Of a stretch of DNA of 64,000 nt, positions 40,848 to 58,525 are shown piece after piece. The notes under the pieces were generated by a model. It ran no database searches. It was not told the DNA's origin and saw only the letters and a list, made by a program, of their open reading frames with translations. Source of the DNA: a virus. Taxonomy: Duplodnaviria > Heunggongvirae > Uroviricota > Caudoviricetes. Location of the stretch: the IMG/VR virus record IMGVR_UViG_3300031884_000008, one strand, 5' to 3'. The translations under genes were made by a program, and so were the position numbers. Numbering within the stretch: position 1 is the first letter of the stretch; each line of letters opens with the position of its first letter.

Positions 40848-42311
40848 ATGAATAATGATCCAAATGAATTAATAAATTTTGCCCGCCGGTCACTTTTAGG
40901 CACGAGTATGGGATTGGGTGTGATAGCCGGCGCCGAATTATTAGGTGCTACCAAATCACAAGCAGCCAGTGCTGCACCTTCCAGCGAGACTGGCCCAGAT
41001 TTAGGTAAGTTAACTACAGGTCAATTTCCAGCAAGAGCAAAGCGTGTAATTGACATTCACATGAAAGGAGCAGTATCCCAAATTGATACTTTTGATTATA
41101 AGCCAGAAGTTATCAAGCGCCATGGGCAAGAAATTCCACCTTCTGTAAAGGGTCATGGCAAAATATCATCAATGTCTAATGGACAAACTTCTTTCCCTCT
41201 TATGGGTCCTATTGCTCCATATAAACAATATGGTCAATGTGGTCGTTGGGTTTCAGACCTAATGCCACATATAGGGTCTATATCAGATGATCTAACCTTC
41301 ATTCATTCTATATGGACTCCCCAAGTTAATCACGATCCAGCAGACATTCTCATGCATACTGGGTTTCAATTAGCGGGCCGCCCTGCCGCTGGAGCATGGG
41401 TTAATTATGCATTAGGGACTGATAACTCTAATCTCCCTTCATATGTAGTCATGAAATCTCAGTTCCAATCAGCAGGGGTTGGCGCTACTCAGGCTACTTG
41501 GTCAGCAGGATTTTTGCCCTCTAATCACCAAGGTGTTGAATTTCGTTCTGGTAATTCTCCTGTTCTTTATGTAAGCAATCCAGATGGCATTAGTCGTGAA
41601 GAACGAAGAAGTCAAATTGATCTTATCGGTGAATTATCGCGCTATCAGTATCAGACGACCGATGACCCAGAAGTCTTAGCCAAAATTGCTCAATATGAAA
41701 TGGCATATCGTATGCAAGATTCTGTACCTGAGGTAACTGATCTATCTGATGAACCACAATATATACTCGATATGTATGGTCCTCAGGTTCATCAACCAGG
41801 TAGCTTTGCTCGCAATTGCCTATTAACACGTCGTCTTATTGAACGCGGTGTTAAGTATGTCAACCTAATTCAAGTTGGATGGGATCACCATAATGGTATT
41901 GCCCGCCGACATCCTAGTGACTGTTGGGCAGTAGATCAGCCATCTGCTGCTTTGGTGACGGATTTAAAGCAGCGAGGACTTCTAGATGATACTCTTGTAA
42001 CTTGGAAGGGTGAATTCGGTAGAACTGTATACGCGCAAGGAGGAATAAATCCAAACTGCGGGCGTGACCATCACGGAGGAAACTTTACGATGTGGATGGC
42101 CGGAGGCGGAACAAAACCTGGCATCGAATACGGCAAATCAGATGATTTCTCTTATAATGTTGTGGAAAATCCAGTAGAAGTTCACGATTTAAATGCTACT
42201 GTGTTATATCTTTTAGGAATTGATCACAAACAACTTACATACCATTATCAAGGTAGAGATTTCCGTTTAACTGATACTGCAGGTAAAGTAGTTCAAGGAA
42301 TAATTGCTTAA
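40848..42311 (+). CDS. DUF1501 (sulfatase-like) protein with Tat signal, canonical partner of DUF1549/DUF1553 proteins
   Basis: RRSLLG twin-arginine motif; DIHMKGAVSQIDTFDYKPE...GRDHHGGNFTMWMAGGG. Confidence 0.7.
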   Translation: MNNDPNELINFARRSLLGTSMGLGVIAGAELLGATKSQAASAAPSSETGPDLGKLTTGQFPARAKRVIDIHMKGAVSQIDTFDYKPEVIKRHGQEIPPSVKGHGKISSMSNGQTSFPLMGPIAPYKQYGQCGRWVSDLMPHIGSISDDLTFIHSIWTPQVNHDPADILMHTGFQLAGRPAAGAWVNYALGTDNSNLPSYVVMKSQFQSAGVGATQATWSAGFLPSNHQGVEFRSGNSPVLYVSNPDGISREERRSQIDLIGELSRYQYQTTDDPEVLAKIAQYEMAYRMQDSVPEVTDLSDEPQYILDMYGPQVHQPGSFARNCLLTRRLIERGVKYVNLIQVGWDHHNGIARRHPSDCWAVDQPSAALVTDLKQRGLLDDTLVTWKGEFGRTVYAQGGINPNCGRDHHGGNFTMWMAGGGTKPGIEYGKSDDFSYNVVENPVEVHDLNATVLYLLGIDHKQLTYHYQGRDFRLTDTAGKVVQGIIA

Positions 42312-42487: not shown

Positions 42488-42793
42488 ATGGACATGATCA
42501 CACAAGAACTGAAATCGCTGCACGAGGAATTCACTTCCCGTGTTTTTCAACTGCGTCTGGTTGACGGTGTTCGACGTGATTGGGCAGTTTCTTGGGCTCT
42601 GCTGCAAGATCAAAGTCCCGACTATGCCGAATGCTATGTTCCTCCGATCTTTCCGATTAAAGGACAAGACCTGCTGGAAACTGGTATGAAGCCTGGCAAG
42701 GAAGTTGGTCAACGGCTGCAAGTCATGCGTGATGCTTGGGTTAAATCTCGTTTTACTATGACTAAGGAAGACCTGCTGTCCCATAATAATTGA
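42488..42793 (+). pseudogene. C-terminal remnant of a CCA-adding tRNA nucleotidyltransferase
   Basis: PIKGQDLLETGMKPGKEVGQRLQVMRDAWVKSRFTMTKEDLL resembles the CCA-enzyme C-terminal tail; only ~100 aa; GC ~48%, above neighbours. Confidence 0.4.
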
Positions 42794-42843
42794 CATATAC
42801 TGCATTAAGTTGTAGTATATGTCATTATTATAAAGGAGACATT

Positions 42844-43377
42844 ATGAGTGCTGACCTTCCTACGCTAGTCCCTAGCGTAGTCTTTAAGACTCGGGTTCGT
42901 GACGATAGTATCGAAGGACCCAATCCATATCGCTGGCAAGAAGTAACTTCATTTGACTATTTCGCAGGAAAGCGAGTTGTGCTATTTGCGCTGCCTGGAG
43001 CATTTACCCCTACTTGCTCTACTTACCAACTTCCGGGTTTTGAAAATAACTATCAACAATTTAAGGATTTGGGTATTGACGAAATCTACTGCTTGTCAGT
43101 GAACGATTCGTTCGTCATGAACAAGTGGGCTCAAGACCAAAATCTAAAGAACGTTAAGGTTATTCCGGATGGTTCTGGTGAATTCACTAGCAAGATGAAC
43201 ATGCTTGTTGCTAAGGATAATTTGGGTTTCGGTGTTCGTTCTTGGCGATATGCGGTAATCGTTGACAATGGACGCATTGAAAAGTGGTTTATTGAACCTG
43301 GCATCGAACACAATTGCGATACGGATCCCTACGGTGAATCTTCACCTGAAAACATCCTCGTATATCTGAAAAACTAA
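42844..43377 (+). CDS. peroxiredoxin (Prx5-like, AhpC/TSA family)
   Basis: VLFALPGAFTPTCS peroxidatic Cys motif; AGGAG RBS. Confidence 0.7.
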   Translation: MSADLPTLVPSVVFKTRVRDDSIEGPNPYRWQEVTSFDYFAGKRVVLFALPGAFTPTCSTYQLPGFENNYQQFKDLGIDEIYCLSVNDSFVMNKWAQDQNLKNVKVIPDGSGEFTSKMNMLVAKDNLGFGVRSWRYAVIVDNGRIEKWFIEPGIEHNCDTDPYGESSPENILVYLKN

Positions 43378-43905
43378 CAACCGCGGACAAGCTTCGCATA
43401 AAAAAAGAAGAGGAAACCCGCATCATCTTTCTCTACGGTAGTGCAATACATAAGGCACTAGAGCGCAATGAATTCCAACATACTCCTTTTAAAACTACGA
43501 CAGGAGGATGCGGTAATCCATGGGTAGTGTGTGATATGCTCGATAAGCAGGAAGTTGTATTTGCCCTATTGAAATACGATTTTCGAATCATGACGCCCAA
43601 CGAACCTCTCTACAAAGAATACGATAAACGAGCCAAAACACTAGATTACGATGAAGCAGATTGGATTGATGAAGATGAAGACCTGTAAAATTTTCGTACC
43701 AACCTAGGTTTTCCATCAAATTAATAAGGCAATACGAGAATCGGGAATCAAACACCTGCCGTATCAAAAAAAGTTTGATGGGTACAACATTGAATTTATG
43801 ACTAATGATCATCCTCTAATTTGTTATCTTATTCTTAAATACGACGTGAAATATGAAATATGAAATATGAAATGTCATAAATATACACAGTATGAAAGAT
43901 TCAGT

Positions 43906-44802
43906 ATGTCTGTAGTAATTTTGACCAAAAGAGAAAAGGATTATGAGAATGCTCGTCTCCTAGAAAGTTTTGCCAACCAAGGTATAAACGTACAGTTTGC
44001 CAATCCAGAAAACTTTGATTTAGTTGTTAGGCAAGGTATAGAAACTGGTATAAATTACAATGGATTGACCCTTGAGAAACCCAAACTTTTGTTGACTAGA
44101 ACTGGATCAGGTACAAATGAGTTTGCAAGGGCTTTGATCAGACAGTTTGAAGAAGAAGGAACACCTTGTGTAAATTCCTCTGAGGGAATTGAGATTGCTA
44201 AAGATAAACTTAGAACATCACAATTACTAGTGAGCAATGGAATTCCAATTCCAAATACGATGCTAGTTAGGTTTCCAGTTGAAGTTGATATTGTAGATAG
44301 AAATATTGGTTGGCCTTGCATAGTAAAAGTGATTAGTGGAAGCTATGGTGAAGGTGTATATCTATGTGAAAGAAAAAAAGATTTCAAAAAGCTTATGGAC
44401 TTCACTGATAGTCTAAAAAGTGCAAAAACCTTAATAGTACAAGAATACGTAGGACACCGCCCAGGTGAAGACCTCAGAGTGTTTGTTGTGGGCGGCAAGG
44501 TGATTGGGGCAATGAAACGTATTGCTCCAGTCGGTGACTTCCGTGCTAATATTTCAAATGGTGGTCACGGTGAAACATTTGAGGTCACCGACGAAATTGA
44601 ATACATTGCGAGAGAGACTGCTAGAGTTTGCGGATTGCAAATTGCAGGGATAGACCTCTTGTTTGATGAAAACGGATTTAAAGTTTGTGAAGCAAACTCA
44701 GCTCCAGGCTTTGAGGGCTTCGAACGATATTGCAATATAAATGTAGCAGACCACATCGTAGGATTTGTTAACTTCAAGTTAAACGGGTTAACCCGCAATT
44801 GA
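43906..44802 (+). CDS. RimK-like ATP-grasp ligase (alpha-L-glutamate ligase family)
   Basis: GWPCIVKVISGSYGEGV...IVQEYVGHRPGEDLRVFVVGGKVIGAMKRIAPVGDFRANISNGG aligns with E. coli RimK. Confidence 0.65.
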   Translation: MSVVILTKREKDYENARLLESFANQGINVQFANPENFDLVVRQGIETGINYNGLTLEKPKLLLTRTGSGTNEFARALIRQFEEEGTPCVNSSEGIEIAKDKLRTSQLLVSNGIPIPNTMLVRFPVEVDIVDRNIGWPCIVKVISGSYGEGVYLCERKKDFKKLMDFTDSLKSAKTLIVQEYVGHRPGEDLRVFVVGGKVIGAMKRIAPVGDFRANISNGGHGETFEVTDEIEYIARETARVCGLQIAGIDLLFDENGFKVCEANSAPGFEGFERYCNINVADHIVGFVNFKLNGLTRN

Positions 44803-47170: not shown

Positions 47171-47519
47171 ATTAGTTGGAGGCAAGAATCTCTGACAGTT
47201 AGGATGAAAGACCTAACACAAGTGCAAGTCGGAACGAGGCTGCAAAGCACTTTAAAAAATGAACGGGCGGTGTTAGGGATGAAATCTGCGGAGGTAACGC
47301 AGAAAGTAAAAACTTTCAGTGAAGGGCATTGTGACCCTTCGCAAGTGGGGCAGTCCGAAATGCTGGACAACATATCCTCGCTTGTCAATAAAAAGCTAAC
47401 TATTATTATATGAAAACATAGGACTTAAACACAGTCACTGGGCTACGAACCTCGTTGAAGCAACACGTCAATGTGTTTTCTTATAATCATAGTATTCGTA
47501 TATAAATATCAAGTATTAT

Positions 47520-47593
47520 TGTCCCTTCGTCTAATGGTAAGACATCCGTTTTTGGTGCGGATTATCGAGGTTCGAGTCCTTGGGGGACAGCCA
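47520..47593 (+). tRNA. tRNA-Gln(UUG)
   Basis: Cloverleaf by eye; anticodon loop TTTTGGT; CCA encoded; TATAAATA 13 nt upstream. Confidence 0.7.
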
Positions 47594-47637
47594 AATTATA
47601 TGCCGTGTTAGCTCATACAACATACCTATTAATAGGC

Positions 47638-47644
47638 ATAAATA
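47638..47644 (+). promoter_or_regulatory. late-promoter-like ATAAATA box
   Basis: gcATAAATAactgagctaggacaaagcttATG. Confidence 0.4.
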
Positions 47645-47664
47645 ACTGAGCTAGGACAAAGCTT

Positions 47665-48162
47665 ATGCACGTATGTCACTGCGGTAAAGAGTTTGAAACG
47701 TTCCGTCAATTGAATGGACATAAAAGTGTTCATCGGGAAGGCGGAAGATACTCTATTAGTAGAGGTAGAGCCCGAACAAATATACCTTCGTGTTTGAAAT
47801 GCGAGAAACAATGTGGCGTCAAGCAAAAGTTTTGTTCTAATAAATGTCAAGCAGAATACCAGTCTGCTGAAAAAATTAAAAATTGGTTGATAACCGGTGC
47901 ATTTGATAGCATGGGTTTTCCGGCATGGGCGCGCCGAACTTTAATAGCGTTGCATGGAGCCAAATGTCAGTGGTGTAAATTAGAGCAATGGAACGATCTC
48001 CCAATCACACTAGAATGTGATCATTCAGATGGTAATCCTAATAACAATCATATAGATAATTTAAGGTTGCTTTGTCCAAACTGTCATAGTCAAACTGATT
48101 CCTTTAAAGGAAAAAACAGGGGAAATGGTCGAACGCACCGGTACAAAAATAAGCCGACGTAG
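47665..48162 (+). CDS. HNH endonuclease with N-terminal C2H2-like zinc finger (paralog of 55811)
   Basis: CHCGKEFETFRQLNGHKSVH; ITLECDHSDGNPNNNHIDNLRLLCPNCH; stop overlaps tRNA-Thr start. Confidence 0.65.
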   Translation: MHVCHCGKEFETFRQLNGHKSVHREGGRYSISRGRARTNIPSCLKCEKQCGVKQKFCSNKCQAEYQSAEKIKNWLITGAFDSMGFPAWARRTLIALHGAKCQWCKLEQWNDLPITLECDHSDGNPNNNHIDNLRLLCPNCHSQTDSFKGKNRGNGRTHRYKNKPT

Positions 48163-48227
48163 CACAGTGGTAGTGCGCAGTCTTGGTAAGACTGAGGTCA
48201 AGGGTTCAATCCCCTTCGTCGGCACCA
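48153..48227 (+). tRNA. tRNA-Thr(GGU)
   Basis: Anticodon loop TTGGTAA; CCA encoded. Confidence 0.75.
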
Positions 48228-48233
48228 TATTAC

Positions 48234-48310
48234 GGATCCTTAGCTCAGCGGACTAGAGCATCGCGCTTCGGACGCGAGGGTCGGCAGTTCAAATCTGTCA
48301 GGATTCGCCA
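48234..48310 (+). tRNA. tRNA-Arg(UCG)
   Basis: Anticodon loop CTTCGGA. Confidence 0.75.
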
Positions 48311-48330
48311 AATATAGCATATTAAAGTAT

Positions 48331-48408
48331 GCAGTCATAGCTCAACGGATGAGAGCATCAGACTACGAATCTGAGGGTTGGGGGTTCGAATCCCTCTGAT
48401 TGCGCCAT
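48331..48408 (+). tRNA. tRNA-Arg(ACG)
   Basis: Anticodon loop CTACGAA. Confidence 0.7.
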
Positions 48409-48418
48409 TTATAGTATT

Positions 48419-48530
48419 GGTCCTAGGTGGTTTTCCTTGGTGGGAAAGGGTGTGACGTTCGAATCGTCTCTATAGGACTTGGGTGCCCCAAAAGCGGTTT
48501 GATTCCGCTAGCCAATACGACTTTATCATG
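48419..48530 (+). ncRNA. tRNA-like element(s) with T-arms (GACGTTCGAATCGTC; AGCGGTTTGATTCCGCT) that do not fold into one canonical cloverleaf
   Basis: Two T-loop consensus segments, stem-triloop TTGGG-TGC-CCCAA; acceptor pairing imperfect. Confidence 0.25.
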
Positions 48531-48549
48531 CGCACTTCGTACAATAGTA

Positions 48550-48622
48550 GTACCGCTGTCTCCAAAGCAGCAGACGTGGGTTCGATTCCAATTAGACCCA
48601 CCAAATTGCGCATTGCACACCA
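48550..48622 (+). pseudogene. degenerate tRNA-Trp(CCA)-like copy (good D and anticodon arms, disrupted T-stem/acceptor)
   Basis: GTACAATAGTAGTAC D-arm; GCTGT-CTCCAAA-GCAGC anticodon arm; T-stem 3' strand does not pair. Confidence 0.3.
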
Positions 48623-48690
48623 AAGTTTATGCCCCGACTATCAACTCACTTAGGTGATTATATAATTAGGATTGAGGGCCACCATAATAC

Positions 48691-48777
48691 GGAGTGGGTA
48701 AGCAGATAGGATCTGTCTTCGCTTGGAAAGCGAAAGGTACCTTACGGGTATAGAGTTCGAATCTCTAACGCTCCGCC
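48691..48777 (+). tRNA. tRNA-Ser(GGA), class II
   Basis: Anticodon loop TTGGAAA; long variable arm. Confidence 0.7.
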
Positions 48778-48931
48778 ATAAGTTTATGCCCCTATCACGT
48801 ATGTTTGGTATCCAACACCGAAAGTAATCGAGAGAAAGATAGAGTAGGGGCGACAGTTTATCGTCAGGTCCCGCAGCGGTAGCAGTTTACTAGTGACTGC
48901 CGGAGAGAAAATTTCCTGACGGCCAAATTAT

Positions 48932-49020
48932 CAGGGTATAGCTCAGCCAGGTCGGAGCGCTCGTTTTGGAAACGAGAGGCGGAATCGTTCACGCAGGTTC
49001 GAATCCTGCTACCCTGACCA
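48932..49020 (+). tRNA. class-II (16-nt variable arm) tRNA with anticodon UGG (Pro), discriminator A73
   Basis: CTCGT-TTTGGAA-ACGAG perfect anticodon arm; var arm AGGCGGAATCGTTCAC; perfect T-arm and acceptor. Confidence 0.5.
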
Positions 49021-49029
49021 TTTAACTAC

Positions 49030-49121
49030 GGAGAGTTGACCGAGCGGCCGAAGGTGGCGGTCTCGAAAACCGACGTACTTAGAAATAAGTACCGGGGGTT
49101 CAAATCCCTCACTCTCCGCCA
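49030..49121 (+). tRNA. tRNA-Ser(CGA), class II
   Basis: Near-identical in architecture to E. coli tRNA-Ser(CGA): GGTCTCGAAAACC. Confidence 0.7.
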
Positions 49122-49129
49122 AATTTAAT

Positions 49130-49203
49130 TGAGGGTTCGTCTAATAGTAGGATATTTGACTCTGAATCAGAAGATCCAGGTGCGAGTCCTGGCCCCTCAT
49201 CCA
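49130..49203 (+). tRNA. tRNA-Gln(CUG)-like
   Basis: TTTGA-CTCTGAA-TCAGA anticodon arm; good T-arm; weak D-stem. Confidence 0.45.
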
Positions 49204-49221
49204 ACATACCAGCGAGGAAAT

Positions 49222-49605
49222 ATGAAACTGAAAATGTACTGCATCTTCGCTAAAGAAAGCGTAGACAAGATGAAAGGTAATCGCGGAAAGCTTGCTTCTA
49301 TGGCAGGTCACGCATACCTTCATGCTTATTGGAATGCAGTTAGTCTTGAGGTTTCTTCGGACTGCAATCTTCAAGCAATCCAGTACAAGAACAGTGATCA
49401 TGCGTATAAGATCACTCTTATTGTTGACACGGTAGCCGAACTAGAAGTGATTCAAGAGGCATACAAGAATGTATGCGGTGTCTCGTTAGTTAAAGACGCT
49501 GGGTTCACGGTATTCAACGAACCGACTGTTACTTGTTTAGGACTCGGTCCTATTCGAGAAGACTTGATCGGTGAAGATTTGAAAGCCTTGAAGCTATTCA
49601 TGTAG
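49222..49605 (+). CDS. peptidyl-tRNA hydrolase, PTH2 family
   Basis: MKGNRGKLASMAGHAYLHAY matches PTH2 GKGK-AAQ-xHA motif; C-terminal GLGPI...LKLF; embedded in the tRNA array. Confidence 0.5.
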   Translation: MKLKMYCIFAKESVDKMKGNRGKLASMAGHAYLHAYWNAVSLEVSSDCNLQAIQYKNSDHAYKITLIVDTVAELEVIQEAYKNVCGVSLVKDAGFTVFNEPTVTCLGLGPIREDLIGEDLKALKLFM

Positions 49606-49751
49606 AGAGGATACTCTCGTTGGTACCCTGCACAATGGTTCTGACGAGGAAGGGTAGTGTGCAGCTACCCGAGAGATTATGGGGACGTAAGTGGGCTTAA
49701 CGCCGGGCTGGCAGTTCAGCAGGGAGGGTTCGATTCCCTCCGTCTCCACCA
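49606..49751 (+). ncRNA. structured RNA candidate: 5' nested-helix domain plus tRNA-like 3' module (acceptor GGGGACG/CGTCTCC, T-arm, ACCA)
   Basis: CTCTCG...CGAGAG and CTGCACA...TGTGCAG helices; ...GGGAGGGTTCGATTCCCTCCGTCTCCACCA 3' end. Confidence 0.35.
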
Positions 49752-50068
49752 AAATAACTCGGCGGGTGAAGAACACCGTAAGTCCGCAGAATTCATGTTG
49801 CTCTAGTGTAGATGGTCTGCACGCGAGACCGAAAATCTCGAGGTTTCGGATCATTACCGAAGGGCAACACCATTTATGTCTCCTCAGGTTCATAGCGTGC
49901 TAAAGGCGTCAAGTCGCCGGGAGACACCATTTTTACTGTAGGTGATTATTGCAAGCCCTGCAGAATGAGATATACGGTTGAGGAGAAACTAGGCAGCACA
50001 ATACTGCTATTAGTAAGCTTTTAAGGGGGTGACGGTCTCTAAAAATGAGGAACCCCAGTAAGTTTTAT

Positions 50069-50153
50069 GCGAGTATGGCGGAATTGGTAGACGCACTGGT
50101 TTTAGGTACCAGCGCCGAAAGGCGTGGGGGTTCGACTCCCTCTACTCGCACCA
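50069..50153 (+). tRNA. tRNA-Leu(UAG), class II
   Basis: Anticodon loop TTTAGGT. Confidence 0.75.
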
Positions 50154-50199
50154 ATATATAATGCCCCGATGGTGGAATTGTCCAGGGTATAAATGATGT

Positions 50200-50283
50200 G
50201 GGGGCGTGGCGGAATGGTCTACGCGGCTGTCTCAAAAGCAGCTTCCGAAAGGATTGGGGGTTCGACTCCCTCCGCCCCTACCA
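50200..50283 (+). tRNA. tRNA-Leu(CAA), class II
   Basis: Anticodon loop CTCAAAA. Confidence 0.75.
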
Positions 50284-50289
50284 AATTAG

Positions 50290-50853
50290 TTACATACCGG
50301 CTTCTGCTTTAAGTGCATCAAGCTGTCTATCGTAATCTTTAGCCCAACCCAAAATAGTCTGTTTTAGTCGAGAGAACACATCTCCTACAGCTTCTTTGAT
50401 TGGCTTTACTGACATTGCAGGACTTTTTTGAGTCACTGTAACCATTTGCTTTTTAAGCCCCTCTAACACTACGATCAATTCAGGTGTTAGATGCTTCTCT
50501 AATTCAGTTAAAATATCTTTGTACTTTGGAGTTCTAGTTTCTTCCGGATCCTTAGTCAACGTAAAGATAAAGCTAAGAGTCTCAACAACTCTAGTGCGAA
50601 CGGCATCTTCTGCGTCAAACAAATCACTCACATTTTCTTTAGCTTCATCCTTTACGGCAGCTTTAAGATATTTGACTTCTGATTCCAATTCATCAATTCT
50701 TGCAAGTTTTTGTGCAAGCTTTGTATATATTTGGCTATTATAGCTCTTAAGTCTAGCAATGACCTTTTTACCGTTAGGTTCGTCCTCGTACTCCAAATTA
50801 GGATTACGTGCTTCAAATAGGTTAAGTAGTTTACGAAAATCTGTAGTGTCCAT
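50290..50853 (-). CDS. hypothetical protein
   Basis: ORF 50290..50934; likely start MDTTDF; two ATAAATA boxes and a 16-bp direct repeat upstream. Confidence 0.4.
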   Translation of the reverse strand: MDTTDFRKLLNLFEARNPNLEYEDEPNGKKVIARLKSYNSQIYTKLAQKLARIDELESEVKYLKAAVKDEAKENVSDLFDAEDAVRTRVVETLSFIFTLTKDPEETRTPKYKDILTELEKHLTPELIVVLEGLKKQMVTVTQKSPAMSVKPIKEAVGDVFSRLKQTILGWAKDYDRQLDALKAEAGM

Positions 50854-50914
50854 ATTCATATTTATCATTATATTCATATTTATCATTAGATAAATAATAT
50901 GGGAGGATACTCTT

Positions 50915-51298
50915 ATGAAAAAATTACTATGCATCGCTGTGCTTGCGTTAGCAGCATGTACGCCAAATTCAAGTTCACAAGTTGGCGCTGATGGTTATAC
51001 TTTTAAACAAAAGCAGTACGAGAAGCACGAAGTTACGATTAAGATAGTTACATATAAATCACCTTCGGAATTAAACCGAGTAGTAGCAGGGTATCTCAAT
51101 AAGAGTACTACGGCATCAGATCATAAAGTAAATTCTACTAACGTAGTAGCATTTAGCCTGCTGCAACCTCCTAGTTATGATACATGCACAATTCACATGA
51201 TGGATCCTAGCGTGACTTACCAACCAGAGTTTGTTGGTCACGAATTTATCCATTGTATATACGGACAGTTTCACGGCGACAACACAGTAAATAACTAA
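50915..51298 (+). CDS. small lipoprotein with HExxHxxGxxH (metzincin-type) zinc-binding motif
   Basis: Lipobox LALAAC; HEFIHCIYGQFH; ATAAATA + GGGAGGA RBS upstream. Confidence 0.45.
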   Translation: MKKLLCIAVLALAACTPNSSSQVGADGYTFKQKQYEKHEVTIKIVTYKSPSELNRVVAGYLNKSTTASDHKVNSTNVVAFSLLQPPSYDTCTIHMMDPSVTYQPEFVGHEFIHCIYGQFHGDNTVNN

Positions 51299-51299
51299 C

Positions 51300-51374
51300 G
51301 CCCTATTAGCTAAGAGGTATAGCAGCGCTTTCGTAAAGCGAAGGTCGGCAGTTCGATTCTGTCATGGGGCACCA
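51300..51374 (+). tRNA. tRNA-Thr(CGU)
   Basis: Anticodon loop TTCGTAA. Confidence 0.55.
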
Positions 51375-51429
51375 AAAAATCTAAGTGTTTAGGTTGCGAC
51401 ATGTTAAATACATTCGGAGAAAATTTCGC

Positions 51430-51867
51430 ATGTATACTGTTTATAGAATTACTAATTTGGTTAACAGCAAAACCTATATAGGAGTTCATAAGACCAACAA
51501 GCCAATGGATTCGTATTACGGGAGCGGAACTGCAATAAAAAACGCAATTTCAAAATATGGAAAAGAAAATTTTCGAAAGGAAATTCTTTTAATATCCGAA
51601 ACCCGAACGGAAGCATATGATTTAGAACGAAAGCTAACCGAAAACTTTAACGAACATTCAAATTATAATATGAGATTGGGCGGAGTGGGAGGGTTTACCA
51701 AAGAGAGCGCCCTTAAGGGCGCTCTGGCAAGGATAGAAAAAACAACAGTAGAAGAACGCAGTCTTCTGGCCAAAAAAGCTTATTTAGAGTACGTCAGCAG
51801 AATGACGGAGGAAGAATATAGTTCCTATACGAACGCCATGCGAGAAAGAGCTAAAAAGGCGGGTTAG
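51430..51867 (+). CDS. GIY-YIG homing endonuclease
   Basis: YTVYRITNLVNSKTYIGVHKT...YYGSG. Confidence 0.6.
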   Translation: MYTVYRITNLVNSKTYIGVHKTNKPMDSYYGSGTAIKNAISKYGKENFRKEILLISETRTEAYDLERKLTENFNEHSNYNMRLGGVGGFTKESALKGALARIEKTTVEERSLLAKKAYLEYVSRMTEEEYSSYTNAMRERAKKAG

Positions 51868-52107
51868 CGAATAAAGGTAAACCAAAAAATACGGATTCAG
51901 TTGAACACCAAGAAGCCAACAGAAAAAGATCATTAGCCTCTAAAAACAAAGTCAGAATAACTAACGGAGTGATTAACAAATCAATTTCGCCATTGGACGA
52001 AATTCCTATAGGATATAGAAAAGGTCTAACTCGTCGCAACCATAAAGAAAATAAAAAACCCGGTTGACAATTTTTTTATATCTGTTATGATAAAATTAAA
52101 GAAATAT

Positions 52108-52184
52108 GCCCGTATAGCTCAGTGGTCAGTAGCGCAGGTCTCATAAACCTGGGGTCCTAGGTTCAAATCCTAGTGCGGGCACCA
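52108..52184 (+). tRNA. tRNA with CAU anticodon (Met or, more likely given adjacent TilS, Ile2/lysidine)
   Basis: CAGGT-CTCATAA-ACCTG anticodon arm; G1:C72 paired so not an initiator. Confidence 0.7.
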
Positions 52185-52203
52185 TCATCTAAGAGGTACT
52201 CAA

Positions 52204-52881
52204 ATGTCAGTTGCATGGAAAAAGATTCAACAAGAATTAGTGAATCTGTATTCGCAAGATCGTAGAGAAATCCTGCTGATGGTATCAGGAGGACCCGACA
52301 GTATGTTCATGCTAGATTTCTGCAATAATGCAGGCATCGGTTTTACTGTCTGTCATTTTCAGCACGGTATTCGAGACAACGATTATCTCGACAAGGAACT
52401 CATTCAGCAGTTTATTCAGGATAAACAGATTCAATGTAACTTTGTCGTTGGTTACGGAAAGGATCTCAAAGATTCTTCCAACCTTGAAGCAGAGGCCCGC
52501 AGTCAGCGTTGGGAGTTTGTGCGTAACTACAGAAAAACTCTTGGTAAAGAGGTTGTAGCGGTAACTGCACACCACCTCAATGACAATATCGAACAAGTGT
52601 TTTTGGACCTGATGCGGGGCGCCGCTCATTCGAATCTTGGACTTGCTAAGTTTAGATTTGACGAAAGCCTAGAATTTTTTAAATGCAAACCATTTCTTAC
52701 GGTTCCGAAGTCTGTTATTTTAGAACAGTGCAATCGGCGCGGTATCCCCTTCATTGATGATATCACTAATCAAGACAATCACCATGAAAGAAATTGGTTG
52801 AGAAATGAAATCATTCCACAACTGATGAGTCGTAGAAATCTAGAGAAATCTATGCTCAATGCGTTAATTCACAACTATTGA
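52204..52881 (+). CDS. tilS: tRNA(Ile)-lysidine synthetase-like PP-loop ATPase
   Basis: LLMVSGGPDSMFMLDF (SGGxDS PP-loop); VTAHHLNDNIEQVFLDLMRGA; gene starts 20 nt after the tRNA(CAU). Confidence 0.55.
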   Translation: MSVAWKKIQQELVNLYSQDRREILLMVSGGPDSMFMLDFCNNAGIGFTVCHFQHGIRDNDYLDKELIQQFIQDKQIQCNFVVGYGKDLKDSSNLEAEARSQRWEFVRNYRKTLGKEVVAVTAHHLNDNIEQVFLDLMRGAAHSNLGLAKFRFDESLEFFKCKPFLTVPKSVILEQCNRRGIPFIDDITNQDNHHERNWLRNEIIPQLMSRRNLEKSMLNALIHNY

Positions 52882-52894
52882 AAGATAAAATACA

Positions 52895-53119
52895 ATGACT
52901 AAGAAGACCGCGCTTGAAAAGGATTTGGACAAGCATACAAAGCTGTACGTGTCGCATACAGTCGAAGAAATGAAGCGATTGAGGCATTGGTTTGCCGGTT
53001 TTTCTGCTGCTGGCGGAAAGCTTCCGGCATGTGAACAAAGTTTTAGTGCCTGCCAAAAGGCACAAGTTATTCTTGACGACTATCTGGCCCTTATGGAAAA
53101 ATACGGACCTAAATCCTAA
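52895..53119 (+). CDS. hypothetical protein
   Basis: 74-aa ORF. Confidence 0.3.
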   Translation: MTKKTALEKDLDKHTKLYVSHTVEEMKRLRHWFAGFSAAGGKLPACEQSFSACQKAQVILDDYLALMEKYGPKS

Positions 53120-53127
53120 ATAAAATA

Positions 53128-53203
53128 TGCCTAGGTGGCGGAATTGGTATAGCAGCGCTTTCGTAAAGCGAAGGCCGGCAGTTCAATCCTGTTCTAGGCA
53201 CCA
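53128..53203 (+). pseudogene. tRNA-Thr(CGU)-like duplicate with diverged 5' half (poor D-stem)
   Basis: 3' 55 nt near-identical to tRNA at 51300. Confidence 0.35.
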
Positions 53204-53270
53204 AATACGATTTACCTATAGAAAAATAATTACCTAAATTAGGTACTTAAATAGTATATAGGAGAAACTC

Positions 53271-53444
53271 ATGAACACTAATACTAAACCTAATCGCAGA
53301 GCGGTCATCACTGACATAGATGGATATGTAGTGCTTTGCTACGAAAACGAAATTCTTAAGCGTACAATCGATCTTAAGGACAAGTCAATCTACTATGCAG
53401 AGTCCGCCGCCGAAAATTGGGAATCAGGTATTCTCAACGAATAG
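53271..53444 (+). CDS. small hypothetical protein (57 aa)
   Basis: AGGAG RBS; not in ORF track (<60 aa). Confidence 0.3.
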   Translation: MNTNTKPNRRAVITDIDGYVVLCYENEILKRTIDLKDKSIYYAESAAENWESGILNE

Positions 53445-53566
53445 TCTATAAAATGGTTGACGCCGTTCGCCCATTTTGTTATATTAACTCATAAGATGAA
53501 TTGAAGAAATTTCAAGGATTGAACATAGGGTTCAATAGAGAGAATGAACATATAGGATAAATACAG

Positions 53567-53573
53567 AAAAATA
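53567..53573 (+). promoter_or_regulatory. late-promoter-like ATAAATA box
   Basis: gGATAAATAcagaaaaataggagcagttATG. Confidence 0.4.
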
Positions 53574-53582
53574 GGAGCAGTT

Positions 53583-54146
53583 ATGGCGATTCTAGCCTTG
53601 GACGTTTCGGGTATTCCCCGAACTTGGGTATCTAACGACGATGCAATTTCTTATCACGCGAAGGGTCTTGTGGCCTGGTCGCTAGGTTCGGTAGTTGCTC
53701 GTTATCGTGGTGGCACGAGAAATGACGGTACCCAAAGCTATCTTGAAACTCCGAGTATCATCGCCATTAAGGGCACTGGTTTCGACTTCAAGAAGCACAC
53801 GCATGTTATTCTGACGAACAAGACTTTGTTCGCTCGTGACCGTAGCGTCTGCGCCTATTGCGGTGATCATCACACGAGTCATCAATTCTTGAGTCGTGAT
53901 CACATCAAGCCGCGGTTTCTTGGTGGCGAAGATGAATGGATGAACGTCGTAACTGCTTGTAAGCCTTGTAACCAAAAGAAGGGTTGTAAGACGTTGAAGC
54001 AGGCTGGTATGGAGTTGCTGTACGTACCGTACGAACCGTCACATTATGAACATTTGGTTCTCCAAAACCGCAGCATCCTTGCTGACCAAATGGATTACTT
54101 GATGTCCGGTATTCCAAAACACAGTAGAATTAGACTATATTTTTAA
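53583..54146 (+). CDS. HNH endonuclease
   Basis: CAYCG...LSRDHIKPRFLGGEDEWMNVVTACKPCNQKKG; GC ~47%. Confidence 0.6.
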   Translation: MAILALDVSGIPRTWVSNDDAISYHAKGLVAWSLGSVVARYRGGTRNDGTQSYLETPSIIAIKGTGFDFKKHTHVILTNKTLFARDRSVCAYCGDHHTSHQFLSRDHIKPRFLGGEDEWMNVVTACKPCNQKKGCKTLKQAGMELLYVPYEPSHYEHLVLQNRSILADQMDYLMSGIPKHSRIRLYF

Positions 54147-54854
54147 TTTGCGACAGCGGTCGAAATGCCAAACTTGCATTCCTGATCTTTTACCGATCTT
54201 TTTGCAATGCGGGCACTCGACAATAACCTGAGATTCAAGTGCGGCTTGCTTCTTTCGAAGTTTTGCTGTACTTGAATCTTTTCTACCGAAGTTTGGATTT
54301 GCAGGTCCAATTTTACCGAACATAGGGTTTTTAGCCCCAGACATGTCAGCGTGATTATCGCTCATCTTCTGTTTACGTTCTTCGGTGTGTTTTACACCAA
54401 GTAATGCGTTAGCAATGTTTTTCTTACGCTCAACAGAGTGTGGTCCTACTTTTCTCCCTGTTAGCGTCGTGCTAGTTTTATCTCGTTGCGCTATAGATAT
54501 AACTTTCCCTTTTTGTGAACATCCTATTTTCTTTTTGTGGTTTTCGGTTTTTTTCTTTCCTTTATGTGACGGAGGTTTGCCTCCTCCCGGTACTAAATTG
54601 TAGACATCGGACCTCATTATAAATGATTCATTAACTATTTCAGTTTCCTTAGACAACGCATCATGTTCCGTAGTAAACACATGTAGCGTTTCTCGTATAA
54701 ATTTGTATCGCCCGTATTTCTTTATAGCCTTTAAGATACCTTTACCGCTACCTAAATATCCATCAAATGCGAAGGGGTCACTTTCTTGAAAATGATAACC
54801 CACGTAGATTTTGTTGTTGACAGTGTTAGTAGTTTTGTATATAATGTGAAACAT
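54135..54854 (-). CDS. GIY-YIG homing endonuclease with C-terminal CPHC...WHFDRCRK zinc finger
   Basis: MFHIIYKTTNTVNNKIYVGYH...YLGSG. Confidence 0.65.
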   Translation of the reverse strand: MFHIIYKTTNTVNNKIYVGYHFQESDPFAFDGYLGSGKGILKAIKKYGRYKFIRETLHVFTTEHDALSKETEIVNESFIMRSDVYNLVPGGGKPPSHKGKKKTENHKKKIGCSQKGKVISIAQRDKTSTTLTGRKVGPHSVERKKNIANALLGVKHTEERKQKMSDNHADMSGAKNPMFGKIGPANPNFGRKDSSTAKLRKKQAALESQVIVECPHCKKIGKRSGMQVWHFDRCRKLKI

Positions 54855-54906
54855 GATTTATTTATCTAATCAATATGAGAATCTAATTTATGGTGTTTAA
54901 TATCAT

Positions 54907-54983
54907 TCCCTAGTAGCACAGTTGGTAGTTGCGTCGGACTGTTAATCCGAATGTCGTTCGTTCGAGCCGAACCTGGGGAGCCA
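54907..54983 (+). tRNA. tRNA-Asn(GUU)
   Basis: Anticodon loop CTGTTAA. Confidence 0.75.
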
Positions 54984-55153
54984 TTCTAACGGGGTGAGAG
55001 CCGTAAATAACTCCGCATAGGGTCATGGTTAACTCTATATTATTTAAGTTCGGTAGTGTAGTTAAACGATCAATAAATAGCAAGGCTGTCAGCGTTGACT
55101 AGTGTACTCTAGAGACGGCAAGAGCGGGTGAAGAATCGTCACTCCCGCCCGAA

Positions 55154-55579
55154 CTACTCATCGTGTTTCTTAAGTAGTTCATGAATATCAGAATGAATAG
55201 CTTTGATTTCCTGTAACTCTTTTAATAAAGTTTCGTGATCTTCGTCTGCTCTTTTTTCTGTTTTTTCATTTAAGACCGCTTGACCTACCATAATTATACT
55301 AAGTAAAACTAACTGCAAGAAAGTCTGTGCTATCCAACTTATCAGAGTAGCGACCCCACCCTTAATAGCTTCGGGTAAACTGATAAACGCTATAATAGCA
55401 AAAAGGTAAGCACACCACATTGTGGCTACAGAATTTGTAATGAGTATGGCTATTGTCTTGTTGATATCATTTATTTTGTCAACAATAGGTTTTATATTCA
55501 TTAGCTTTCCTTTTACGTATTTATAAATTTTCATGCATGGAACCATGCATATATACATGATAATGCCGGTATAGCTCAT
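55154..55579 (-). CDS. membrane protein (2 TM helices + C-terminal coiled coil)
   Basis: Hydrophobic segments AILITNSVATMWCAYLFAIIAFISL / LQLVLLSIIMVGQAVL. Confidence 0.4.
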   Translation of the reverse strand: MSYTGIIMYICMVPCMKIYKYVKGKLMNIKPIVDKINDINKTIAILITNSVATMWCAYLFAIIAFISLPEAIKGGVATLISWIAQTFLQLVLLSIIMVGQAVLNEKTEKRADEDHETLLKELQEIKAIHSDIHELLKKHDE

Positions 55580-55599
55580 TCGAAAAATACGTAAAATAC

Positions 55600-55674
55600 G
55601 CCCTTATAGCTCATCGGTAGAGCAGCGACCTTGTAAGTCGAAGGCAGGGGGTTCAATTCCCTCTTGGGGCACCA
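55600..55674 (+). tRNA. tRNA-Thr(UGU)
   Basis: Anticodon loop CTTGTAA; same scaffold family as 51300. Confidence 0.55.
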
Positions 55675-55810
55675 TTTTTGCTCGTTTTCATATTTGAAAG
55701 ATAAATAATTATTAATTAATAGAAAGTTTCAAAAATGAGTATGAGTAAAGCAGAATAGGCGGATTATAATCCGCTGCAATAACACTGCAAAAAAGCAAGA
55801 TCGGATAAAC

Positions 55811-56323
55811 TTGTATACAATCGATCCTAAACGGTGTATACATTGTAGTCAGATTTTAAAATATGAACATCGTCATAGATTGTTTTGCAATTCGTCTTGT
55901 TCTGCTGCCTGTAATAATGCTAAAAGAAAAATAATTTATACAAATATATGTGTTTACTGTAATAATAGTATTTCTAGTAAGGGCAAATATTGTAATAATA
56001 AATGTCAAAATGATCACATTTTTTCTTTAAAAATTAAACAGTGGTTAGATGAAAACCAAGCACCCGGGTTAGGTGCTATCCGTCGATACTTAAAAGAAAC
56101 ATTTGGTTATAAATGCACAGAATGCGGAATCAGTGATTACAATTCTAAACCTATAACATTAGAACTAGAACATAAAGACGGTAATAGTGATAACAATGCA
56201 TTAGAAAATCTTTGTTTGCTATGTCCCAATTGTCATAGCCAAACACCTACTTATAAGGCCAAAAATAAAGGTAACGGTAGACACACTAGAAGACAACGTT
56301 ATGCTGAAGGCAAAAGCTACTAA
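55811..56323 (+). CDS. HNH endonuclease with N-terminal zinc fingers (paralog of 47665)
   Basis: ITLELEHKDGNSDNNALENLCLLCPNCHSQTPTYKAKNKGNGR. Confidence 0.65.
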   Translation: MYTIDPKRCIHCSQILKYEHRHRLFCNSSCSAACNNAKRKIIYTNICVYCNNSISSKGKYCNNKCQNDHIFSLKIKQWLDENQAPGLGAIRRYLKETFGYKCTECGISDYNSKPITLELEHKDGNSDNNALENLCLLCPNCHSQTPTYKAKNKGNGRHTRRQRYAEGKSY

Positions 56324-56374
56324 TCCTTGGTGCCGGCACCAAACAAAGATAAATAGTCACGTAAGGAGACTCTT

Positions 56375-56719
56375 ATGGCTAATTTTTTAAATATTTTTTC
56401 AGAAGCTAAAACAGAAGAAAAAAAGGCAATTCAGCTAGTAGATACGTTCGTAGAGGAAGTAGAGACTGACGCAAAGATTTTATTTGAACGGTCACGAAAA
56501 CTTGCGATTGAAACCAATGCAGAAGTTAGTTTACTTAAAACACAGTTACAAGATGCATTGAAAAAGTCACGAGACGCGCACCAAGAAACAATTAATCAAG
56601 GTGCCCGAGCAATTGCAGATGCGGAAGCTGAAATTGCAAAGTTTAAGCAAATTATCATTGCACATACTTCTGATCTTGCAGCACAAACGGCTCAAATTCA
56701 AACTTCGGAACCAACCTAA
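56375..56719 (+). CDS. hypothetical coiled-coil protein
   Basis: 114-aa ORF with AGGAG RBS. Confidence 0.4.
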   Translation: MANFLNIFSEAKTEEKKAIQLVDTFVEEVETDAKILFERSRKLAIETNAEVSLLKTQLQDALKKSRDAHQETINQGARAIADAEAEIAKFKQIIIAHTSDLAAQTAQIQTSEPT

Positions 56720-56750
56720 TTCTACTGTAAAATATCATCGAGAATGATCA

Positions 56751-56786
56751 AGTCAAGGGTTCAGAACCCTTGACTTTTTCTTTTGA
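56751..56786 (+). terminator. rho-independent terminator
   Basis: AGTCAAGGGTTC-a-GAACCCTTGACT followed by TTTTTCTTTT. Confidence 0.8.
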
Positions 56787-56822
56787 TAGTATAGAATAAG
56801 AAAACGATAAGAGATTAGTTAA

Positions 56823-56867
56823 TGGCTCCATAGCTCAGCGGATTAGAGCCTGAACCTATTCGCGCCA
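56823..56867 (+). pseudogene. internally deleted tRNA fragment (acceptor 5' strand + D-arm joined to ...TTCGCGCCA)
   Basis: GGCTCCATAGCTCAGCGGATTAGAGC then CTGAACCTATTCGCGCCA. Confidence 0.3.
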
Positions 56868-56882
56868 TTGTGTACAATATAT

Positions 56883-56957
56883 GTCCCGGTCGTTTAATGG
56901 ATAAGACAAGAGTCTTCTAAACTCTGAATGGGAGTTCGATTCTCTCTCGGGACGCCA
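56883..56957 (+). tRNA. tRNA-Arg(UCU)
   Basis: Anticodon loop CTTCTAA. Confidence 0.75.
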
Positions 56958-57024
56958 AAATATAACTTGACACAGAATAAAAATTGTGTCATAGTAGAAA
57001 ACTAAATACTTTTACGAAATACAA

Positions 57025-57100
57025 GGGGACATAGCTCATCTGGTAGAGCGACTGGTTTGCATCCAGTAGGTGGCGGGTTCGAGTCCTGTTGTCTCCACCA
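57025..57100 (+). tRNA. tRNA-Ala(UGC)
   Basis: G3:U70 identity pair; anticodon loop TTTGCAT. Confidence 0.8.
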
Positions 57101-57182
57101 ATATTAGGGTCTGCTACGGGATTAATGTAGCAGAGCAATTGAGAGGGAAAATACCCACTCTTAGCCCGTGTGTTTTATATAA

Positions 57183-57259
57183 CGGAGATTAGCGCAGTCT
57201 GGTAGCGCATCTGCTTTGGGAGCAGAGGGTCGCAGGTTCGAATCCTGCATCTCCGACCA
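57183..57259 (+). tRNA. tRNA-Pro(UGG), canonical class I
   Basis: Anticodon loop TTTGGGA. Confidence 0.8.
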
Positions 57260-57324
57260 TAATAGAAGTCGTTACAAAAAGGTAACTAAACGTAACAAGT
57301 ATTTGTAAGAATACAAAAAAATAC

Positions 57325-57400
57325 GGGCCCTTAGCTCAGCTGGGAGAGCGTCTGCTTTACACGCAGAATGTCGGCAGTTCGATCCTGTCAGGGCCTACCA
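57325..57400 (+). tRNA. tRNA-Val(UAC)
   Basis: Anticodon loop TTTACAC. Confidence 0.8.
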
Positions 57401-57427
57401 TTTAGAAGAAGCCGCGCATACAGGAAA

Positions 57428-57868
57428 ATGCTGCGGCTTTTTCATTTAAATAAATATGATATTAAGAAAGGTAATAAGAAGTTGGCCCTATTTCACAAGC
57501 ATTTGATCGTCCGTGCAGAAGTCAATAAACCAATGGTTTGTCCTGAGAAGGTATCTAAAGAGTGGATGCCTGCTCTTATTGACCGTATTGGTATGAAAAT
57601 TCTCATGGGACCCTATGCTGTTTATAGTGATATGGAAGGTAATCGCGGATTGACCGCTGCCACTATTATTGAGACCAGTCATATTGTCATGCATATCTGG
57701 GATGAACAGAGCCCGGCAATGGTACAACTCGACGTTTATACGTGCGGGCCGCTCGATCCATATGACGTTGTTGAATCGCTTAAGATCATGGATCCAGTTC
57801 ATATCGACATGAAATATTTGGATCGTGAACATGATCTGGTTGATCTTCCTATTCCTGAATCCGAGTAA
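57428..57868 (+). CDS. speD: S-adenosylmethionine decarboxylase proenzyme (SpeH/SpeD small class)
   Basis: ETSHIVMHIWDEQ (pyruvoyl-forming ES-H site) and LDVYTCG motifs. Confidence 0.6.
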   Translation: MLRLFHLNKYDIKKGNKKLALFHKHLIVRAEVNKPMVCPEKVSKEWMPALIDRIGMKILMGPYAVYSDMEGNRGLTAATIIETSHIVMHIWDEQSPAMVQLDVYTCGPLDPYDVVESLKIMDPVHIDMKYLDREHDLVDLPIPESE

Positions 57869-57872
57869 CTAT

Positions 57873-57946
57873 ACCAGTGTAGTATAGTGGTAGTGCGAGG
57901 GTCTCCAAAACCCCAAGCGGGAGTTCGATTCTCTCCACTGGTGCCA
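57873..57946 (+). tRNA. tRNA-Trp(CCA)
   Basis: Anticodon loop CTCCAAA. Confidence 0.7.
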
Positions 57947-58240
57947 AATACGTAAAAAACAGTTGACTTGTTTCATATCATACAGTACATTCTCTTATAA
58001 AGAGGATATGAGCATGATGTTTAAATCTGAACAAGACTTTGAAGCTGCATTTGGAACTGAGGAATTTATCAGGCAATACGCTGAATACATCATGCGCAAT
58101 TGTGCCGGAGACCGAATCATCGCCAATGGTGACATGCTTCTTGTAGCTATGGAAGACATGTATCTCTACGAAGAATTTAAAGAGTCCATGCTTTAACTGA
58201 TTTAGGTTTAGTTATTCTACCGCCGATATCTGATGAACAA

Positions 58241-58525
58241 ATGATGTGGTATATCCTTAAGGGGTATACTATTGATGTGGACAGGCCCGGCGAGCGGTGG
58301 TGGTCTCTAAACGGGCAGTGGCACCGAGAAGACGGCCCTGCGGTTGAACATGCGAACGGAACTCGGGCTTGGTATCGCTACGGAGAACTTCACCGAGAAG
58401 ACGGCCCGGCGGTTGAAGATGCGGATGGAACTCGGTATTGGTATCTAAACGACCAAAACATGACCGAAGAAAAACACCGAGAACTCACACAAAAGAACAG
58501 AGAACATGCTACCGCCGATATCTGA
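58241..58525 (+). CDS. MORN-variant repeat protein paralog
   Basis: MMWYILKGYTIDVD...WHREDGPAVE repeats; shares 5' box with 991 ORF. Confidence 0.5.
   Translation: MMWYILKGYTIDVDRPGERWWSLNGQWHREDGPAVEHANGTRAWYRYGELHREDGPAVEDADGTRYWYLNDQNMTEEKHRELTQKNREHATADI

Follow-up and report, generated by a model that had tools for sequence, protein, structure and literature searches.

A PTH2-family peptidyl-tRNA hydrolase gene within the tRNA array of an uncultivated large phage

The 64,000-nt stretch of DNA analysed here (the window), from the Caudoviricetes record IMGVR_UViG_3300031884_000008 of IMG/VR, contains a gene for a peptidyl-tRNA hydrolase of the PTH2 family, the archaeal and eukaryotic type of this enzyme, inside a phage tRNA array. 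The source is an uncultivated large phage; the window has a GC content of about 42% and no near-DNA match among 50,697 phage records. ARAGORN made 28 tRNA calls in the array, 25 of them above the Rfam gathering score and all on the plus strand, and HNH and GIY-YIG endonuclease open reading frames (ORFs) and a few enzymes are interspersed among them (Table 1). The start codon of the PTH2 gene lies 18 nt past the 3' end of a tRNA-Gln(CUG), and at least 13 further tRNAs follow downstream in the window. An initial annotation had placed the gene between tRNAs. This holds for the array as a whole and for the upstream side, where the tRNA-Gln is solid; the adjacent downstream element is degenerate, and the next convincing tRNA is tRNA-Phe(GAA).

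The start codon and the ORF of 127 amino acids (aa) had been placed correctly. A mechanical ORF list also gave a longer, TTG-started frame (49129-49605, 158 aa) that contains the PTH2 ORF, but this frame was ruled out as the gene by its overlap with the tRNA-Gln and by homologues that start at the ATG. All homologues in alignments of 25 and 38 sequences begin with MK.KMYCIFA and the sequence GAGGA precedes the ATG, so that position 49222 is taken as the real start.

The family assignment was confirmed by several methods. The protein matched Pfam PF01981 (PTH2) over profile positions 11-115 of 115 at E 1.4e-14, and its score of 54.7 bits exceeds the gathering score of 23. The initial annotation had named the lack of a significant PF01981 match as the result that would refute it, and this did not occur. 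The same Pfam search gave no match to Pth1 (PF01195), and a weak match to DUF6973 (E 0.13) was disregarded. In PHROGs the protein matched phrog_11824, 'hydrolase' (E 5e-24), and a search of PDB sequences returned, below E 0.003, Pth2 chains only (1xty at 5e-6, Ta0108, MJ0051, PH1539, human Bit1 and AF2095). An AlphaFold2 monomer model based on the alignment of 38 sequences had a mean predicted local distance difference test (pLDDT) score of 92.5 and a predicted template modelling (pTM) score of 0.87. Its strands (residues 3-10, 62-68, 87-92 and 102-112) form the four-stranded Pth2 alpha/beta fold, with four longer helices (11-16, 21-40, 46-56 and 71-81) and a short C-terminal one (118-121). 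Using this model as the query, the top 13 Foldseek matches in the PDB were all Pth2 or Bit1, with template modelling (TM) scores of 0.70-0.87 and root mean square deviations (rmsd) of 2.1-3.6 Å, while the next match had E 0.04. Among these, 1wn2 gave TM scores of 0.81/0.87 with an rmsd of 2.1 Å and 1xty gave 0.80/0.85. Pth2 is a homodimer in archaea and human, and viral Pth is predicted to be one likewise (PMC12487901).

Both signature motifs named in the initial annotation are present: GKLASMAGHA spans residues 22-31, and GLGPIREDLIGEDLKALKLFM (GLGPI...LKLF) forms the C-terminus. The motif positions of Pth2 (GK..A..HA, DAG.T and G.GP) are all invariant in the 25 and 38 homologues, as are K23, H30, D92, T96, G107, G109 and P110 individually. 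In a HMMER alignment with 1xty, counted by hand, K23, D92 and T96 fall on K18, D86 and T90 of Sulfolobus solfataricus Pth2, which we take to be active-site residues. These three positions of the Sulfolobus enzyme were reportedly picked out as such by the mutagenesis of Fromant et al. in 2005. The PTH2 assignment is borne out by the sequence profile, by the fold of the model and by these conserved residues.

The location of the gene suggests how it may be expressed. A consensus scan, of a kind that may not fit the promoter type of the phage and gives weak evidence, found no sigma-70-like promoter and no intrinsic terminator between the tRNA-Gln and the PTH2 ORF. Because the gene is on the same strand as the tRNA-Gln, follows it at a short distance and has no such match in the gap, it is probably transcribed together with the tRNAs, and its mRNA would then be released through processing of the flanking tRNAs. 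A TilS-like tRNA lysidine(34) synthetase catalytic domain is also encoded within the array, which therefore holds tRNA-directed enzymes besides PTH2.

The homologues form a large and conserved family. The closest cultured ones belong to the Dolichocephalovirinae (phiCbK gp157, CcrBL9 and the Brevundimonas phages Gurke and Kikimora): tblastn recovered 39 phage records, all from this group, at 35-54% identity over 87-98% of the protein. Several phiCbK-like records already carry the annotation 'peptidyl-tRNA hydrolase PTH2 family protein', and the best structural match in BFVD was to CcrBL9 (E 8.8e-12). A metagenomic protein database held 546 homologues, the best 120 of which were 60-76% identical to the window protein, on contigs of up to 512 kb. 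When clustered at 50%, the homologues fell into 255 clusters with a limit of E <= 1e-3 and into 79 with a limit of E <= 1e-10.

The linkage to tRNAs, which the initial annotation had reported for the window, recurs in relatives. We scanned 67 IMG/VR loci for tRNAs; the loci are related to one another, so that the counts are not independent. Where the PTH2 protein was 56-70% identical to that of the window (40 loci), 32 loci had at least three tRNAs within 5 kb (median 10) and 28 had a tRNA within 500 nt, with 601 of the 605 tRNAs on the PTH2 strand. At 40-55% identity (12 loci, phiCbK-type included) the corresponding numbers were two and one. At 26-37% identity (15 loci) they were four and four, and seven loci had a transfer-messenger RNA (tmRNA) gene within 10 kb. 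The tRNAs that flank PTH2 vary by lineage: many lineages have Lys(CUU)/Met(CAU), others have Cys(GCA), His(GUG) or Lys(UUU), and the window shares Gln(CUG) with one further locus (L019). This indicates that the tRNAs of the array were reshuffled while the PTH2 gene was kept. On a 512-kb ENA contig PTH2 is likewise embedded among tRNAs, with a truncated HisRS-like gene adjoining it.

These data bear on whether the gene belongs with the tRNAs at all. A recombination- and homing-endonuclease-rich region could gather small genes, and PTH2 could be in the array merely for that reason, with no tie to the tRNAs. The array is indeed crowded with HNH and GIY-YIG ORFs and with unrelated lipoprotein-like and AdoMet-decarboxylase-like ORFs; a near-identical strain shows three cassette-sized insertions or deletions (indels) in it, and phiCbK-type homologues lie outside tRNA arrays. 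We nevertheless regard a passenger gene as extremely unlikely, since PTH2 is kept inside arrays despite the reshuffled tRNAs around it, and since a chance landing among tRNAs is improbable in at least three distant groups: the window clade, relatives of 26-34% identity located beside tRNAs and tmRNA, and the cluster C mycobacteriophages (PMC5966550). Recurrence in three distant groups favours a functional tie over chance.

Taken with the family, fold, motif residues and array context, this recurrence leads us to infer catalytic activity, co-transcription and a role in translation. The gene product is probably an active esterase of the Pth2 type that is produced along with the phage tRNAs; by recycling peptidyl-tRNA and N-blocked aminoacyl-tRNA it would keep the tRNA pool usable during infection. 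The enzyme would cleave the ester bond of either substrate to yield free tRNA. Late in infection, heavy phage translation may lead to peptidyl-tRNA drop-off, by which host and phage tRNAs would be sequestered, and an additional hydrolase could return them, a housekeeping function for the translation supply of the phage. Published authors interpret phage PTH2 in the same sense (PMC7824862, PMC5966550, PMC12487901). The initial annotation had likewise suggested rescue of stalled peptidyl-tRNAs, perhaps to counter host defences directed at translation, which is a reasonable proposal.

Several points weigh against a recycling enzyme of this kind. We found no measured activity of any phage PTH2 in the literature. 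The host presumably has an essential Pth1, which leaves the need for an extra enzyme unexplained. The spacing between GAGGA and the ATG of the PTH2 gene is short (3-4 nt). In phiCbK and Gurke there is no tRNA within 5 kb of PTH2, and in the phiCbK-type IMG/VR loci there is none within 10 kb; the tRNA linkage is therefore lineage-specific and not obligatory. Across the 40 closer loci, which are related, synteny is partly inherited. Finally, the protein is just 21-26% identical to solved Pth2 structures and scored far below the cut-offs of the NCBIfam Pth2 equivalog models NF003314 (45.9 against 126 bits) and TIGR00283 (42.1 against 82 bits). It therefore represents a divergent subfamily, with function inferred at the family level and not at the equivalog level.

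The same distance from characterised enzymes could mean that the PTH2 fold has been repurposed for another substrate or for a non-hydrolytic role, such as deacylation of particular aminoacyl-tRNAs, binding of tRNA 3' ends or manipulation of host translation. Besides the missed cut-offs and the low identity, the clade has invariant residues of its own (Y6, W37, Y55 and C105) that are absent from the archaeal sequences aligned in the PDB sequence search, and some relatives carry N-terminal extensions of 50-200 aa. However, a change of function is very unlikely in our view: every Pth2 motif position is invariant, the model superposes on active enzymes over its full length, and the gene's surroundings give no sign of a different substrate.

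A further alternative, which retains the hydrolase chemistry and changes its purpose, is that the phage uses PTH2 as a dedicated counter-defence enzyme that undoes a host immune attack on charged tRNA, alongside replacement phage tRNAs and RNA-repair proteins. It might do so by hydrolysing the N-acetyl-aminoacyl-tRNA made by GNAT toxins of the TacT, AtaT or ItaT type, or by clearing peptidyl-tRNA left, on the ribosome or off it, after anticodon-nuclease cuts. In this respect, overexpression of Pth counters TacT toxicity (PMC4942678), phage tRNAs have been shown or argued to escape tRNA-targeting defences (PMC10264068, PMC11555353), and Iyer et al. suggest just such a link for jumbo-phage PTH2 (PMC7824862). 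RNA-repair genes occur near PTH2 in several lineages: RtcB lies about 5 kb upstream in phiCbK, a 509-kb NCBI contig has an RNA ligase and a NUDIX gene within 4 kb, and the window encodes a cyclic-phosphate processing receiver (cREC_REC) protein. The cREC_REC family is linked to RNA-repair systems. In addition, the differences from the near-identical strain cluster in two tRNA-like elements just downstream of PTH2. On the other hand, no defence system or toxin was identified for the host, no experiment ties any phage PTH2 to a defence, and the RNA-repair neighbours are not conserved between lineages. The same chemistry also serves ordinary drop-off recycling, and context cannot tell the two roles apart. 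We consider a dedicated counter-defence role plausible, though unlikely.

In a bolder version, PTH2 would be fixed in a co-transcribed 'translation island' of tRNAs, TilS, PTH2 and the cREC_REC protein of RNA-repair type, with its mRNA punctuated by tRNA processing and its dosage coupled to that of the tRNAs, and would have been selected against immunity that acts on charged tRNA, whether by GNAT acetylation or in the aftermath of anticodon-nuclease cleavage. This is quite unlikely; if true, it would make PTH2 an anti-defence enzyme and not a housekeeping supplement. The preferred explanation remains tRNA recycling.

The protein shares PF01981, the predicted fold (TM 0.7-0.87), the length class (115-127 aa) and the conserved Lys, Asp and Thr positions with the archaeal and eukaryotic enzymes of known structure (1XTY of S. 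solfataricus, 1WN2 of Pyrococcus horikoshii, 2ZV3 of Methanocaldococcus jannaschii and 1Q7S, human Bit1/PTRH2). It differs from them in its low identity, its sub-equivalog scores, its clade-specific invariant residues and its encoding in a phage tRNA array in place of a cellular genome. Bacterial Pth1 (PF01195) carries out the same reaction on the same substrates (peptidyl-tRNA and N-acetyl-aminoacyl-tRNA), but its fold and sequence are unrelated (PMC4929431, PMC11202043). The Dolichocephalovirinae, in turn, differ from the window in having PTH2 away from tRNAs, genomes of about 66% GC and Caulobacterales hosts.

Pth2 is rare in bacteria (PMC4929431, PMC7824862), as the initial annotation had remarked, and a cellular scan agrees with this. 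The scan used two peptide patterns on one genome per species for 185,579 species, and it undercounts. The phage-type clade appeared in three contigs of metagenome-assembled genomes (MAGs) and two Asticcacaulis genomes (45-46% identity) only, and one of the three MAG contigs, 144,978 bp in length, also appears in IMG/VR as a viral contig. The other 46 cellular hits, at 26-36% identity, came from about 40 archaeal and about six bacterial genomes or MAGs.

PTH2 in jumbo phages and in phage tRNA arrays is already published, so that the identification is correct but not new. Pth2 of phage RaK2 was noted in 2013 (ORF188, PMC3622015). In cluster C mycobacteriophages, Morgado and Vicente reported in 2018 that about 96% of the tRNA arrays share a PTH2-like gene, which they related to ribosome rescue (PMC5966550). 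The layout there is the same, a PTH2-like gene within a tRNA array with HNH endonucleases and sometimes a tmRNA or an RF-1 domain gene, but the sequence is very distant (no tblastn match at 1e-5 to the window PTH2 and a weak structural match to Myrna, E 0.037) and the host phylum differs. Iyer et al. described in 2021 jumbo-phage PTH2 of archaeo-eukaryotic type and proposed that it hydrolyses peptidyl-tRNA in ribosome rescue after tRNA cleavage (PMC7824862). Like the window, these large phages combine such an enzyme with tRNAs and RNA-repair genes; the metagenomic clade of the window and its tight embedding in an array are not described in those reports (PMC7824862, PMC3622015). The Viral AlphaFold Database paper of 2025 drew attention to Pth in phages and poxviruses and superposed the Pth of a Caulobacter phage on Pth2 of M. 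jannaschii (PMC12487901). Predicted PTH2 folds in BFVD include those of CcrBL9, Atu_ph07, phiN3, RaK2, VH7D, Myrna, Fowlpox virus and several giant viruses.

By its sequence, the window PTH2 is a new and fairly divergent member of the known phage PTH2s, and the result is a correct annotation rather than a discovery. To the big phages that carry their own archaeal-type peptidyl-tRNA hydrolase it adds one well-supported case, together with a large clade from metagenomes. The tight retention in arrays within this clade supports a view of phage tRNA arrays as translation-maintenance modules and not as simple codon-usage supplements. The finding would matter more if a phage PTH2 were shown by experiment to defeat a tRNA-targeting defence, for which the clade supplies many natural variants.

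Table 1. Positions of the PTH2 gene, the surrounding tRNA array and other features of the window
Feature	Position	Strand	Remarks
PTH2-family peptidyl-tRNA hydrolase gene	49222-49605	+	127 aa; ATG at 49222, TAG at 49603-49605, stop included
GAGGA, Shine-Dalgarno-like	49214-49218	+	Read from sequence; ahead of the PTH2 ATG
tRNA array	47520-62393	+	
tRNA-Gln(CUG)	49130-49203	+	ARAGORN; encoded CCA; Rfam RF00005, 47.8 bits
Degenerate tRNA-Ala-like element	49681-49751	+	ARAGORN tRNA-Ala(GGC), anticodon at position 30; below Rfam tRNA gathering score
tRNA-Phe(GAA)	49797-49872	+	ARAGORN; Rfam 46.3 bits (small-region search)
tRNA-Leu(UAG)	50069	+	ARAGORN; next after tRNA-Phe
tRNA-CAU	52108-52184	+	Ends 20 nt before the TilS-like ORF
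TilS-like catalytic domain	52204-52881	+	225 aa; PF01171, 118.5 bits; TIGR02432 (lysidine_TilS_N), 127.7 against 93.6 bits
cREC_REC protein	61773-62156	+	PF20274, 72 against 27 bits
HNH endonucleases	47665-48162, 53583-54146, 55811-56323		Within the array
GIY-YIG endonuclease	51385-51867		Within the array
GIY-YIG endonuclease	54135-54854	-	Within the array
ARAGORN tRNA-Ser(CGA)	48426-48518		Unsupported by Rfam at gathering score
ARAGORN tRNA-Ser(GGA)	48691-48778		Unsupported by Rfam at gathering score
Long tRNA-Pro, anticodon UGG	48932-49020	+	89 nt; Rfam 60.5 bits
Second tRNA-Pro(UGG)	57183-57259		77 nt, normal
tRNA called Phe, anticodon AAA	53129-53203	+	Rfam 38.4 bits
ORF with lipoprotein-type signal	50915-51298	+	127 aa; no family match
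ORF without family	50290-50934	-	214 aa
Split ribonucleotide reductase large subunit	22835-26544	+	N-terminal part 22835-24490; C-terminal barrel 25456-26544
ORF between reductase parts	24524-25459		311 aa; no family match
DUF1501 protein	40848-42311	+	491 bits
Redoxin/AhpC-like protein	42790-43377	+	
RimK-family alpha-L-glutamate ligase	43867-44802	+	TIGR00768, 230.9 against 143.4 bits

The degenerate element that follows PTH2 begins 76 nt past its stop codon and is 71 nt long. It folds with a 7-bp acceptor stem containing G3:U, a canonical T arm, CCA and a shortened D arm, and its anticodon arm is replaced by a 4-bp hairpin with a 6-nt loop. G3:U is an alanine identity feature. The best Rfam match was to tmRNA tRNA-like ends and ran end to end through the model, but it scored 36.7 bits against a cut-off of 47 and a repeat gave a poor, truncated alignment, so that a mini-tmRNA tRNA-like domain paired with PTH2 was rejected as the main reading. 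This idea is further weakened by an alignment in which the element looks like a copy of the tRNA-Ala(UGC) of the window with parts deleted, by its presence in only two near-identical contigs (L008 and L009) and by the lack of any match in an IMG/VR search. We regard the element as a degenerate tRNA-Ala paralogue; it could also be a functional alanine-accepting tRNA-like RNA.

The near-identical strain was compared with the window through L008, which is at least 96.7% identical over aligned blocks and 99.4-100% identical in three of the four blocks. An aligned 2-kb block contains 10 mismatches and one gap, about eight of which fall in the two tRNA-like elements past PTH2 (49606-49900, against L008/L009). 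In the tRNA-Ala-like element, about four differences lie in the anticodon-arm region, and its central hairpin has two substitutions and one indel against the otherwise identical L008. The tRNA-Phe has one difference adjoining the anticodon, where the window has C and L008 has T, and three in the T arm; in the window the tRNA may be decaying or diversifying. The PTH2 protein differs from that of this 99%-identical strain at a single position (C48W), which makes the ratio of nonsynonymous to synonymous substitution rates (dN/dS) uninformative. L008 lacks three segments of the array: window positions 47444-48079, with an HNH endonuclease and a tRNA-Gln(UUG); 48394-48995, 602 bp long, which includes two weak 'tRNA-Ser' calls as well as the 5' portion of the long tRNA-Pro; and 50986-51976, with a GIY-YIG endonuclease and a tRNA-Thr(CGU). 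These cassette-sized gaps probably reflect strain-level turnover of the array driven by homing endonucleases.

Elsewhere in the array, the tRNA-CAU and the TilS-like ORF, which lacks the C-terminal domains of bacterial TilS, probably represent a phage tRNA-Ile2 with its own lysidine synthetase. The cREC_REC protein is encoded directly ahead of a tRNA-Ser(GCU), and the window showed no recognisable RtcB or RNA ligase. The long tRNA-Pro has Pro-type ends (C1:G72 and A73) and an extra, class II-like variable arm of about 15 nt. The tRNA called Phe has an unusual anticodon and is the weakest full-length Rfam match at gathering score. The ORF at 50915 encodes a lipoprotein-type signal, MKKLLCIAVLALAAC, and a zinc-protease-like motif, HEFIH. 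It overlaps the end of the 214-aa ORF, the only sizeable minus-strand ORF thereabouts.

Among the distant PTH2 relatives (26-48% identity), the loci L055, L057, L064-L066, L069, L072, L074 and L078 have phage-encoded tmRNA genes, some in permuted form, at a distance of 10 kb or less, and several of these large-phage loci also have suppressor-type tRNAs with the anticodon CUA or UUA nearby. Other huge phages may thus have a ribosome-rescue neighbourhood of PTH2 and tmRNA.

The remainder of the window contains genes for a tail tube protein, a non-specific endonuclease and a structural protein that shares about 32% identity with proteins of PA5oct-like and other jumbo phages, together with an ORF of 1520 aa. 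The ribonucleotide reductase genes are split: a 311-aa ORF separates the two parts of the large subunit, and the ORF of the C-terminal barrel opens with an intein-splicing fragment, which looks like an interruption by an intein or a homing endonuclease. Just upstream of the array, the RimK-family ligase, the DUF1501 protein and the redoxin/AhpC-like protein are auxiliary genes that are unusual for a phage.

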